64,000 bases of DNA from a virus: the IMG/VR virus record IMGVR_UViG_3300046170_000299; one strand, written 5' to 3'. The position numbers and the translations under genes were made by a program. Below the pieces are notes generated by a model. It did not search any database, had not been told where the DNA came from, and saw only the letters and a list, made by a program, of their open reading frames with translations. This document shows, piece by piece, positions 18,589 to 49,403 of the stretch; the stretch's first letter is position 1, and each line of letters begins with the position of its first letter.

Positions 18589-19127
18589 TATACTCGATAT
18601 TTAATTACAACTTCTTCGCTCAATTTCAAGCAGTTAATCATGAAAAATTAATAGCAGAATTGAATAGAGAAGTTGTACTTGGTGTTAATGATTATGCATG
18701 GTCTGCTAAGTGTGATGTATCTACAAAAAGATTAGATACAGGTAAGTACACTGAATTACTACAACCAAGCATCAATAAATTTGCAGATACTCTTCAAAGA
18801 AAATTAAATTTTGCAATTGATGAAGCATGGTTAAATAGTTATCAAAAAGGTTCTTATCAAGAGATTCATGATCATGTCCCTTCAGATATATCATGTGTAT
18901 TATTCTTGAATCATGGAAAAAACTTTTCGGAATTTTATTTTAGGGATAGGTACAGTTCAGATGTCTCATTTAGATTGAGACAAACATTAGGTTTTACAGA
19001 TCTATGGACTCCACAAATTAAAGCAGGAGATATATTATTTTTTCCTTCTAATGTTCTTCATGGAGTTTCTAAACATAAGAGTGATACGTTGAGAAAAACG
19101 TTTTCATGTGATATAATAATCAAATGA
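18585..19127 (+). CDS. 2OG-Fe(II) oxygenase-like protein
   Basis: EIHDH (HxH) and FFPSNVLHGV; GTG start overlaps upstream stop. Confidence 0.8.
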   Translation: MIYSIFNYNFFAQFQAVNHEKLIAELNREVVLGVNDYAWSAKCDVSTKRLDTGKYTELLQPSINKFADTLQRKLNFAIDEAWLNSYQKGSYQEIHDHVPSDISCVLFLNHGKNFSEFYFRDRYSSDVSFRLRQTLGFTDLWTPQIKAGDILFFPSNVLHGVSKHKSDTLRKTFSCDIIIK

Positions 19128-19198
19128 CTCAGTAGCTCAGTGGACAGAGCAACTGCCTTCTAAGCAGTCGGTCGTTGGTTCGACCCCAACCTGAGTCG
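19126..19198 (+). tRNA. trnR: tRNA-Arg(TCT)
   Basis: Acceptor GACTCAG/CTGAGTC, anticodon arm ACTGC-CTTCTAA-GCAGT, TTCGA loop. Confidence 0.95.
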
Positions 19199-19201
19199 TT
19201 A

Positions 19202-19284
19202 GTCGGTATGGCGGAATTGGTAGACGCGATAGATTTAGGTTCTATTGTCTTTATGGCGTGGAGGTTCAAGTCCTCTTACCGACA
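19202..19284 (+). tRNA. trnL: tRNA-Leu(TAG)
   Basis: Acceptor GTCGGTA/TACCGAC, ATAGA-TTTAGGT-TCTAT, long variable arm. Confidence 0.93.
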
Positions 19285-19287
19285 TTC

Positions 19288-19359
19288 GGGTGAATAGCTC
19301 AGCGGTAGAGCATCTCCTTTACACGGAGGCGGTCGGGGGTTCGATCCCCTCTTCACCCA
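19288..19359 (+). tRNA. trnV: tRNA-Val(TAC)
   Basis: Acceptor GGGTGAA/TTCACCC, anticodon loop TTTACAC, TTCGA loop. Confidence 0.95.
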
Positions 19360-22225: not shown

Positions 22226-22594
22226 ATGAGCGTTACATCACAACTAGAGAAAGCAGAAGAAGCTATCCGTCAGGCATTGATCAACGCTCTTGCAGAGGGC
22301 GAAGATGAATACCTTTCTGAACTGTTTGATTCACTTAATTCAGTTCGAGACCTGAGGACAAAGATCAACAACACCATTCGTTTCAGTGATAATACTGACG
22401 ACTTTTATGACCGATTGAATGATCCTAATTATTCTTTCAACTTGTCATCTCCTTATTTGAGCAGTCTGAAGATTGGAAAAGATTTGGATGCTTTGGATAA
22501 TCTTGACTTTGGTGCAGCAGCAGGTCCAGTCTATGGTTCTGCAAGCGAAGACGTAATTTCTTTTGAAGATTACAAGTCCCGAGATGACTCATAA
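22226..22594 (+). CDS. Hypothetical protein
   Basis: Likely start MSVTSQLEKAEEA. Confidence 0.7.
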   Translation: MSVTSQLEKAEEAIRQALINALAEGEDEYLSELFDSLNSVRDLRTKINNTIRFSDNTDDFYDRLNDPNYSFNLSSPYLSSLKIGKDLDALDNLDFGAAAGPVYGSASEDVISFEDYKSRDDS

Positions 22595-22740
22595 ACTCGC
22601 TCTGGTGCGGATGGGAAACTCTCCTGCCTGGTTTTTTATTTCCAGTTAAAGAATAAATGGTGGATCCAAATTGACCCCTTCCGTGTGGATGATTTCCTGT
22701 TTTGCATCTAAACTAAAACAGGTGGCGTGCATGGTAGACC
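22595..22740 (+). ncRNA. Structured RNA resembling the cyanophage manA/wcaG motifs
   Basis: Intergenic; three UGGYG motifs (22603, ~22659, ~22723), CTGG/CCAG stem whose loop could pair with AATAAA, CCTGTTTT/AAAACAGG hairpin. Confidence 0.6.
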
Positions 22741-43563: not shown

Positions 43564-43599
43564 GGTAAACAAATGTAACGATCCCGTTTGGATTCCGTG

Positions 43600-43715
43600 A
43601 CATTGATACGACGCCTTACCAAGACTAAACAGCGTCATTAAATAACAGTCTTTCATACCTCCGCCTGAGGGTGGCGAAGGAATATCATATCAGTGTTTCC
43701 CTGCACTCATACCTA
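43600..43715 (+). ncRNA. PhotoRC-II-like structured psbA leader
   Basis: GAC...AAGACT...AGTCTTTCATACCTCCGCC-TGAG-GGTGGCGAAGG in the psbA 5' UTR. Confidence 0.65.
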
Positions 43716-48513: not shown

Positions 48514-48529
48514 TGTATTAAGAAATACA
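48514..48529. promoter_or_regulatory. NtcA box
   Basis: TGTA-ttaagaaa-TACA = GTA-N8-TAC with preferred flanks. Confidence 0.7.
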
Positions 48530-48531
48530 GG

Positions 48532-48560
48532 TTGACAACGCATACATAGTATGGTATGCT
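48532..48560 (+). promoter_or_regulatory. Sigma70-type promoter
   Basis: TTGACA, 17 bp, TG-n-TATGCT; predicted TSS ~48567 at the aptamer 5' end. Confidence 0.8.
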
Positions 48561-48566
48561 TATACC

Positions 48567-48613
48567 ATCGTTCATCCCACTCTTGGGTGGGACGCAAGTA
48601 AGTCGCGGAACGG
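48567..48613 (+). ncRNA. Glutamine-II (Downstream-peptide) riboswitch-like aptamer 1
   Basis: CGTTC/GAACG P1, TCCCAC/GTGGGA P2, CGCAA...CG...GGAACGG. Confidence 0.75.
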
Positions 48614-48616
48614 AGC

Positions 48617-48799
48617 CGTTCATCCCATGCTAGAATTATTATTCTATTCATCACTCACATGTGCTCAAGCTGATAGCATTATGCTACGGATGAGAACAAA
48701 CGAGAATATTCCTCCCGAATATAAGGTGGAATTGATTGAGGTCATGAAGGAATCAACACCTGAATGCTACCCTTGGGACGCAAACGACTAAAGGAACGG
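48617..48799 (+). ncRNA. Glutamine-II riboswitch-like aptamer 2, split by an ORF in the P2 loop
   Basis: 5' half CGTTCATCCCA (48617-48627); 3' half TGGGACGCAAACGACTAAAGGAACGG (48774-48799). Confidence 0.7.
48627..48791 (+). CDS. 54-aa ORF nested in aptamer 2
   Basis: MLELLFYSSLTCAQADSIMLRMRTNENIPPEYKVELIEVMKESTPECYPWDAND; GGAG at 48612-48615. Confidence 0.65.
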   Translation: MLELLFYSSLTCAQADSIMLRMRTNENIPPEYKVELIEVMKESTPECYPWDAND

Positions 48800-48829
48800 A
48801 TTAAAATCCAACTACTTTAGGAGTAACTC

Positions 48830-48997
48830 ATGAACACACTTAATCAAATCAAGAAGCAGATCATCAAGAGATCTGCTCTACACGACGCTCAGATTCTTCA
48901 CACTACATATCGTGGTGTTAAGTATGATACAGGTAGTGTAGAATCTAAAGAGACCCATGGCACATTCTGCTATCGTGGTCAACTTTATAAAAAGTGA
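48830..48997 (+). CDS. DUF4278-family small protein
   Basis: TTYRGVKY and FCYRGQLY repeats; AGGAG RBS; downstream of the aptamers. Confidence 0.8.
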   Translation: MNTLNQIKKQIIKRSALHDAQILHTTYRGVKYDTGSVESKETHGTFCYRGQLYKK

Positions 48998-49011: not shown

Positions 49012-49040
49012 CAGAGAGGGTTTTAACCCTCTCTTTTTTT
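49012..49040 (+). terminator. Intrinsic terminator
   Basis: AGAGAGGG-ttttaa-CCCTCTCT + T tract. Confidence 0.85.
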
Positions 49041-49185
49041 ATGAGTATAAACCAGTAGGCAATAATATTCGTTGCAATTTTTCTTTAATTGAATGTTCCA
49101 AAAATAAATAGTGGTAGAATTATGCGAGGTGGAAAAATGAACCCTTCTCTCCCCTTTATTATGGTTTATTGCATGGAGAAAATTA

Positions 49186-49359
49186 ATGCACAATCTATTG
49201 TCCAGATCTCAACTTAACCAGTGGAGACACTTAGAAACTACTGTAGACACTTTGGAGGTGGAAAATCAAAAGCTCGATGACTACTATGAATGTTTAGTCG
49301 AATGCGATTTAGAAAACCAAACTTATTGTAAACGAATATGTAGAAAAATTTTAACGTAA
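49186..49359 (+). CDS. Small twin-CX3C protein (57 aa)
   Basis: MHNLLSRSQLNQWRH...YYECLVECDLENQTYCKRICRKILT; hand-translated. Confidence 0.7.
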   Translation: MHNLLSRSQLNQWRHLETTVDTLEVENQKLDDYYECLVECDLENQTYCKRICRKILT

Positions 49360-49365
49360 ATATCT

Positions 49366-49403
49366 AGAGAGGGGTTGCAACCCCTCTTTTTTTATGCTAT
49401 GAT
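49366..49403 (+). promoter_or_regulatory. Terminator fused with sigma70 promoter
   Basis: AGAGGGG-ttgcaa-CCCCTCT + T tract; TTGCAA (49375), 17 bp, TATGAT (49398). Confidence 0.75.

Follow-up and report, generated by a model that had tools for sequence, protein, structure and literature searches.

Riboswitch aptamers are usually treated as compact, noncoding leader elements. The glutamine aptamers were reportedly first characterized by Ames and Breaker in 2011. In the solved structures of glutamine-I and glutamine-II, the ligand occupies the major groove of a CGUUC/GAACG helix, where it contacts the C1:G59 pair and the triple of G22 with G2:C58 (PMC6698751). A survey from 2017 counted no more than two glutamine aptamers among cyanophage genomes (PMC5473149), and in the cyanophage papers that we found, the riboswitch appears only as an Rfam match. 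In the literature, Ames and Breaker 2011 aside, we found no published ORF inside a glutamine aptamer and no gene inside any aptamer.

Here we analyze a cyanophage leader that encloses a small gene. With glutamine-I (RF01739), as found in the Synechocystis gifB leader (PMC6212724), it has in common the CGUUC/GAACG P1, a P2 that follows a single A, the CGNAAGUA and GAAG joiners, P3, and the ligand-contact bases. A DUF4278/IF17-like gene follows in both. The known glutamine switches of such genes (the gifB leader and those of Prochlorococcus) are translational ON switches (PMC6212724), and the phage element is probably one too. Unlike in glutamine-I, the P3 of the phage RNA opens into a second aptamer-like junction and not into a hairpin, its P2 loops (one or two) hold whole genes, its P1 strands appear to be swapped, and its Rfam score is below threshold. 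With glutamine-II (the Downstream-peptide motif, RF01704), the locus shares the CGUUCA-stem-CGCA 5' module, a GGAACG partner, and a predicted pocket. Since the glutamine-II aptamer is functional as two separate strands (PMC6698751), the GGAACG strand can come from elsewhere. However, glutamine-II folds into an H-type pseudoknot whose hairpin loop contains GGAACG, and it has no nested ORF, whereas GGAACG of the phage inner core lies just upstream, in a plain hairpin.

Three further groups of RNAs are comparable. Tandem riboswitches (glnA RNAs, PMC2864571; tandem glycine) also combine two cores, one leader, and one gene, possibly for a sharper response, but the phage cores are interlocked via a common helix, as judged by covariation, and a gene lies inside one of them. 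Group I and II introns with homing-endonuclease or maturase ORFs likewise tolerate a whole ORF in a loop, and there too the ORF differs by lineage. In contrast to these introns, the phage host RNA would be a metabolite sensor in an mRNA leader and not self-splicing, the ORF ends overlap the conserved core, and there is no sign of a mobility function. Dual-function RNAs (tmRNA, SgrS/SgrT, and RNAIII/hld) serve as structured regulator and message in one molecule; their two parts are mostly separate, whereas in the phage RNA the sensor surrounds the coding region, of which five codons are themselves core.

Results

The locus and its transcription unit

The window, by which we mean the whole stretch of 64,000 nucleotides that was analyzed (IMG/VR record IMGVR_UViG_3300046170_000299), originates from a T4-like cyanomyovirus, its top DNA matches being Synechococcus phages of the Kyanoviridae. 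Its features are listed in Table 1. The 3' half of the sensor, GGGACGCAA-N9-GGAACGG, occurs exactly twice in the 64 kb (at 48589 and 48775), with 0.00 occurrences expected by chance, and the 5' half, CGTTCATCCCA, is found at 48569 and 48617, the sole such motifs in the window.

Table 1. Positions of the features discussed, counted from the first base of the window
Feature	Position	Strand	Remark
Three tRNA genes, wcaG RNA (68.6 bits), PhotoRC-II RNA (54.8 bits)	19126-19359, 22573-22671, 43598-43693		All exceed Rfam gathering scores
Sigma-70-like promoter, TTGACA + 17-nt spacer + TG-TATGCT	48532-48560	+	Consensus scan, 10/12 matches
Outer P1, 5' strand CGTTC	48569-48573	+	Pairs with 48794-48798; invariant in 210 unique loci
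P2a hairpin TCCCACT/GGTGGGA, loop CTTG	48575-48592	+	Compact in the window phage
Outer-core J2/3 CGCAAGTA	48593-48600	+	Contains G48594 (equivalent of ligand-triple G22); (nearly) invariant
Shared helix P3, 5' strand AGTCG	48601-48605	+	Pairs with 48785-48789
Inner P1' hairpin	48608-48621	+	GAACG 48608-48612, loop GAGC, CGTTC 48617-48621
P2b, 5' strand TCCCA	48623-48627	+	A48627 is first base of ORF54 start codon
ORF54, small gene of the gp197 family (PHROG 504)	48627-48791	+	Fills the P2b loop
P2b, 3' strand TGGGA	48774-48778	+	Also encodes Trp-Asp
Inner-core J2/3 CGCAAA	48779-48784	+	G48780 is equivalent of ligand-triple G; encodes Ala-Asn
Shared helix P3, 3' strand CGACT	48785-48789	+	T48789 is first base of ORF54 stop
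J3/1 AAAG (GAAG in most phages), then outer P1, 3' strand GAACG (48794-48798)	48790-48798	+	
Short hairpin GGAT/ATCC	48798-48809	+	Candidate expression-platform helix; takes G48798 from outer P1
SD AGGAG (48819-48823) and DUF4278 (IF17-like) gene (48830-48997)	48819-48997	+	
Intrinsic terminator, 9-bp stem then T run	49013-49043	+	Ends the two-gene unit

The unit between the promoter and the terminator encloses two small ORFs, ORF54 and the DUF4278 gene. Judging from the predicted promoter, the RNA would start a few bases 5' of the sensor. The DUF4278 gene, which is separated from the outer P1 by 31 nt, matches Pfam DUF4278 with an E value of 6.5e-5, just under the cut-off, and PHROG 545 with an E value of 1e-30. 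A local fold at the position of the hairpin at 48798-48809 was predicted in most of 141 variants of the downstream tail, with differing stem sequences, and no convincing anti-SD that would act on the DUF4278 gene came to light. RNA-library contigs of three studies span ORF54 and the sensor halves, which documents presence only and not strand, level, or ends; one of them stops at 49060, and another extends upstream of the predicted promoter.

Several other elements flank the unit. A palindrome at 48515-48528, GTATTAAGAAATAC, matches the NtcA consensus GTA-N8-TAC and adjoins the TTGACA -35 box; phage S-SSM4 has GTTAC-N3-GTAAC at the equivalent position. An inverted repeat at 48552-48565 is centered on the -10 box, directly before the sensor, and is also present at the equivalent positions of loci L081 to L093. 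Its symmetry is kept while its sequence changes (GGTATgcttATACC in the window, GGTAtaatTACC in S-CAM4, and GTCATgctatcATGAC in S-SSM4), and it may act as an operator or fold into a hairpin at the 5' end. Downstream of the operon lies a Cys-rich ORF of 57 aa (49186-49359) with its own terminator-like hairpin at about 49368-49392; this region is conserved in ACG-2014e/j and S-CAM4.

ORF54 is conserved as a gene

A preliminary description of the locus had proposed a 54-aa ORF in the loop of an aptamer P2 stem whose strands, TCCCA and TGGGA, are 146 nt apart. It placed the A of the ATG on the final base of the P2 5' strand, had the C-terminal W-D-A-N-D-stop written by the aptamer 3' half (TGGGACGCAAACGACTAA), and let the putative SD, GGAG, begin at the 3' edge of the P1 of aptamer 1. 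All of these elements are present in the sequence as described, GGAG (48612-48615) starting on the last base of the GAACG strand. The broader claim, that a P2-type stem in a glutamine aptamer has a conserved coding ORF in its loop, is supported by the open frame, by dN/dS, and by covariation of the stem, as detailed below.

We parsed 305 related loci, comprising 288 from IMG/VR, 16 annotated phage-record regions, and the window stretch. ORF54 homologues were found by tblastn in 329 phage records, with divergence down to about 45% amino acid identity, and are annotated as CDS in Syn9 (gp197) and other phages; ORF54 itself matches PHROG 504 with an E value of 9e-31. Among 201 unique ORFs, which measure 52 to 57 aa and differ in length by whole codons, the frame was open in all 201 and both alternative frames were always closed. 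The dN/dS ratio had a median of 0.31 and was below 1 for each pair. Two cysteines, one glutamate, and one proline are (nearly) invariant, and the codons for these residues vary. ORF54 is thus, on comparative grounds, a real protein gene. Its AlphaFold (AF2) model is a two-helix hairpin (pLDDT of 81), for which a Foldseek search against the PDB gave no match (best E value of 5). Pfam holds no family for ORF54, and the Atlas only unnamed clusters.

The ends of ORF54 overlap aptamer sequence

The start codon, the last five codons, and the stop of ORF54 lie in sensor sequence, in agreement with the suggestion of a dual-coding RNA. Across 295 related loci, the flanks are near-invariant, in contrast to the interior of the ORF with its divergence to the roughly 45% identity given above. 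Synonymous diversity, which ranges from 0.04 to 0.78 at interior codons of the family, is zero across the last five codons of the 201 unique ORFs: GAC is used in 198 of 198 cases, GCA in 201 of 201 (alanine being four-fold degenerate), and AAC in 167 of 167. GAT for the last aspartate occurs only in loci where the P3 partner strand covaries. Because the tail is devoid of synonymous variation, we conclude from codon use that it is held by the RNA and not by the protein. In S-CAM1, the ORF ends 11 nt 5' of the 3' half, which is still intact.

The long-range P2 stem across the ORF, P2b, was also supported by covariation. Compared to the usual TCCC/GGGA, we found the compensatory pairs CCCC/GGGG (4 loci, in which Trp-Asp becomes Trp-Gly), TCCT/AGGA (1 locus), and TCTT/AAGA (1 locus), as well as U.G intermediates in which TCCT or TCTC faces GGGA; 15 compact loci carry a U.G pair. 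In L281 and L294, a different ORF of 57 aa stops exactly on the P2b 3' strand, where TAG/TAA stands in place of TGG, and the 5' strand of P2b is altered to match. The position of the start codon is also constrained, the ATG of the ORF54 family being 4 nt into the P2b 5' strand in 207 of the 210 unique loci.

Pairing of the P1 strands

The halves of the sensor had been read as two aptamers side by side. Covariation, RNAalifold, and the minimum free energy (MFE) fold favor instead two cores with swapped P1 strands and a common central helix, and the side-by-side topology is probably wrong. In a covariation test on 124 compact loci, 99.7% of the cells were paired and 7 pairs showed double changes, a result reached by 0 of 500 shuffles. 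Compensatory changes were seen in P2a (double changes in three of the four counted pairs), P3, P1', and P2b, and no pair was broken in P3, P1', or P2b. For the central helix P3, they comprise AATCG/CGATT, GATCG/CGATT, AGACT/AGTCT, and AGTCA/TGACT, with G.U intermediates and not a single locus with a broken pair. The split loci and six ORF-free loci (see below) provided extra compensatory cases.

The pairing of the P1 strands themselves is indicated by five loci (L179, L200, L204, L280, and L285) in which GAACG/CGTTC has become CAACG/CGTTG. There, GGAACG is changed to GCAACG together with the adjacent CGTTC to CGTTG, and the distal CGTTC and GGAACG are unaltered. With tandem pairing, these loci would have a mismatch in both P1 helices, whereas the hairpin between the 3' strand of "aptamer 1" (E2) and the 5' strand of "aptamer 2" (E3) stays perfect. 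Because the five loci compensate only in this way, E2 appears to pair with E3. They represent two backgrounds, one with loop GTTC and a compact P2a and one with loop GAG and a split P2a, so that this pairing rests on about two independent events and is not final. For the outer P1, whose strands are without covariation of their own, the pairing derives from the MFE fold, from RNAalifold, and from exclusion via the E2:E3 covariation.

Both RNAalifold on the 124 loci and the single-sequence MFE fold of the window gave the nested topology unguided. The constrained energies are 0.4 kcal/mol apart (-62.0 kcal/mol for the nested and -61.6 kcal/mol for the tandem form), and the nested and tandem forms account for about 0.79 and 0.19 of the ensemble, respectively. 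Furthermore, the joiners of the RF01739 consensus (CGCAAGTA as J2/3 and RAAG as J3/1) meet in one core only under the nested reading, in which the outer core is a nearly perfect match to a glutamine-I aptamer with P3. The candidate SD of ORF54, GGAG, is kept in 206 of the 210 unique loci. Its position at the edge of "aptamer 1" is as previously noted, but in the nested reading it lies in or at the loop of the inner hairpin P1' and not in a free linker gated by aptamer 1.

RNAalifold also proposed an extra 3-bp helix, GCG/CGC (48605-48607 with 48779-48781). It is invariant, and it is broken in L224; the fifth P3 pair was preferred. In L243 (approximately 905-945 and 1085-1115), AGCCGACT flanks P3 twice, once on its 5' side and once on its 3' side, the copies being identical rather than complementary, which the P3 model does not explain. 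This variant is real, since it recurs in a metatranscriptome contig (with loose ends at 48785).

Relation to the glutamine aptamer families

At the gathering threshold, Rfam gave no match at the sensor locus. Below it, RF01739 scored 29.1 bits for the compact copy at 48567-48616 (gathering threshold, 35) and gave no match for the split copy, and RF01704 scored 25.0 bits (gathering threshold, 33). We compared the locus with the families feature by feature. As in RF01739, a CGUUC/GAACG P1 (48569-48573/48794-48798) closes a three-way junction in both the MFE and the RNAalifold structures, a covarying P2 directly follows CGUUCA in the case of both P2a and P2b, and the element is the leader of a DUF4278/IF17-type gene. 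The joiners CGGAAGUA and GAAG around P3 are present in the outer core only, the inner core having CGCAAA and CG. The outer-core J2/3 CGCAAGTA agrees with the consensus CGGAAGUA, and J3/1 with the outer P1 3' strand is invariant and agrees with the consensus GAAGGAACG. The H-type pseudoknot of RF01704 has no counterpart at the locus, where no enclosing 3' stem was found and the supported structure is fully nested.

The equivalents of the ligand-contacting bases (C48569, G48570, C48797, G48798, and G48594 in the outer core; C48617, G48618, C48611, G48612, and G48780 in the inner core) are invariant in both cores across the 124 loci. The sole covarying P1 pair adjoins P2, and the same pair is reported to be nonconserved in glutamine-II (PMC6698751). 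By analogy with the solved structures, the CGUUC/GAACG helices of both cores would accommodate glutamine in their groove, and glutamine would control ORF54 and the downstream DUF4278/IF17-like gene. In the inner core, which is without E-loop joiners, ligand binding is less certain than in the outer core and may be absent.

Variants of the element among cyanophages

Both riboswitch flanks were identified in 295 of the 305 loci, the remainder being contig ends or a false match. All 295 complete gp197 loci carry the flanks, and gp197 was never seen outside the loop. In 86 of the 210 unique loci, including those of Syn9, S-IOM18, S-CAM1, and S-TIM66, P2a is stretched as well, around a 66-aa gp196 gene (PHROG 6471). 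The stretched P2a covaries over about 200 nt (TCTCA/TGAGA, TCTTATG/CATAAGA, and TCTCATGCT/AGTATGAGA), and the start codon of its ORF is found 4 nt inside the 5' strand of P2 in 65 of 83 cases, with the stop falling within helix or joiner sequence. Paralogy of gp197 and gp196 is not supported (hhalign probability of 5%). Six viral contigs harbor a fully compact, ORF-free version 5' of a DUF4278 gene, which Rfam reads as two sub-threshold tandem matches to RF01739 (28.4 and 21.3 bits); no homologues of gp196 or gp197 were found near these loci in the six contigs.

Other ORFs also occupy the loops. An ORF of 57 aa in L281 and L294 (937-1107 in both) and one of 75 aa in L150 (429-653) replace gp197/gp196 in the P2b/P2a loop. 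They have a common hydrophobic N terminus, the 57-aa ORFs carry a pair of cysteines about 36 residues apart, and a PHROG search with one ORF of this set gave no match. In L176 (595-695), the inner GGAACG/CGTTC hairpin has a 105-nt insert in its loop, which makes this the third loop found to tolerate one. Finally, a metatranscriptome contig (loose end before 48785) shows a compact single aptamer, CGTTCA-TCCC-TTTA-AGGGA-CGAAAACGC, with the same CGACTAAAGGAACGG 3' end, and may be a one-core relative. A search for the central-junction pattern in genome contigs gave, among the matches listed, only chance ones in GC-rich bacteria.

Discussion

The explanation that we favor, and hold to be somewhat better than even, is that the leader forms a strand-swapped double glutamine sensor which encloses a gene and in which ribosomes and RNA folding compete over two outputs. 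The outer core would be a near-consensus glutamine-I three-way junction made of P1, P2a, the joiner CGCAAGTA, P3, and the joiner AAAG. Inside P3, a second aptamer-like junction would form, with P1' as a local hairpin and P2b closing around the complete 54-codon gene. A 30S subunit at the ORF54 start would cover the inner hairpin and the P2b 5' strand, and a ribosome terminating at 48789-48791 would cover P2b, P3, and the outer P1 3' strand. Since initiating and terminating ribosomes would cover helices of the sensor, translation and the folded sensor should be mutually exclusive. To that extent, the earlier proposal that ribosomes on the ORF unfold an aptamer holds up; its wiring from aptamer 1 to aptamer 2 is not supported.

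Because the 3' end of ORF54 completes the sensor, ribosomes could load onto ORF54 only with the inner core open, that is, before the 3' end of the gene is transcribed or at low glutamine. Each terminating ribosome would then unzip P2b, P3, and the outer P1, resetting the sensor. High glutamine would lock the fold, which would shut the ORF54 start and free the ribosome site of the DUF4278 gene, as happens in the ON switches of gifB and Prochlorococcus. The element would thereby split translation between two small proteins according to the nitrogen status of the host. The direction of ORF54 regulation in this scheme is purely what we infer. We offer as a tentative proposal, in which we have limited confidence, the full form of this reading: an aptamer encloses a gene under its own control, and two strand-swapped glutamine sensors form a two-output translational switch, in which the nested gene or genes are read at low glutamine and keep the sensor unfolded, and the nested gene is silenced and the IF17-like gene is on at high glutamine.

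The small genes could instead have colonized tolerant riboswitch loops as a passive landing pad, comparable to intron loops that house homing-endonuclease genes, and be translated without any designed coupling to sensing. The presence of at least three unrelated ORF families in the loops (gp197, gp196, the 57-aa ORF of L281/L294, and the 75-aa ORF of L150), the lack of detectable relatedness between gp196 and gp197, the ORF-free form, and the 105-nt insert of L176 in a third loop would all fit such an origin. The start positions, however, are fixed (P2b, 207 of 210 loci; P2a, 65 of 83) and the stops fall in a helix or joiner, which is far tighter than expected of random insertion; gp197 was not seen outside the loop, and the clash between ribosome and fold would be unavoidable whatever the origin. 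We thus regard passive colonization as unlikely.

Two further alternatives concern the topology. The original cascade, in which aptamer 1 (48569-48612) gates ORF54 and the ribosomes on ORF54 unfold aptamer 2 (48617-48798), which gates the DUF4278 gene, profits from the four P1 strands being identical in most phages, so that tandem pairing is possible, at nearly the same energy (-61.6 versus -62.0 kcal/mol). Moreover, Rfam places two tandem matches on the compact forms, and the first core can fold tandem-wise before the remainder is transcribed. Yet the five E2:E3 loci leave both tandem P1 helices mismatched, the AGTCG/CGACT covariation would have to reflect a pseudoknot between single-stranded joiners, the consensus joiners would be divided between two "aptamers," and both RNAalifold and the MFE fold choose the nested form; the cascade is therefore decidedly improbable. 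The RNA might also toggle between the two topologies, with glutamine or the passage of a ribosome setting the trapped state as the regulatory event. The near-equal energies, with the tandem form making up 0.19 of the ensemble, a transcription order that favors the tandem form first, and the identity of the four P1 strands in 207 of the 210 unique loci, which is stricter than helix formation needs, speak for such a switch. That strand invariance is, however, already accounted for by the ligand contacts, and in the variant loci it is the nested pairing alone that stays perfect, which makes toggling quite unlikely too.

Under the nested double-sensor reading that we prefer, more than 300 sequenced cyanophages would carry a glutamine-type sensor that has been missed by models because genes sit inside it. 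The layout would be a natural case of ribosome passage competing with ligand-dependent folding, and it presents five codons apparently fixed by RNA function, together with a sensor whose two sites interlock. The layout also suggests that the phages control the nitrogen status of the host via an IF17-like protein and two small proteins. If true, the two-output switch would represent a new coupling between the sensing of a metabolite, the traffic of ribosomes, and a dual-coding sequence, and most marine T4-like cyanophages would use it.
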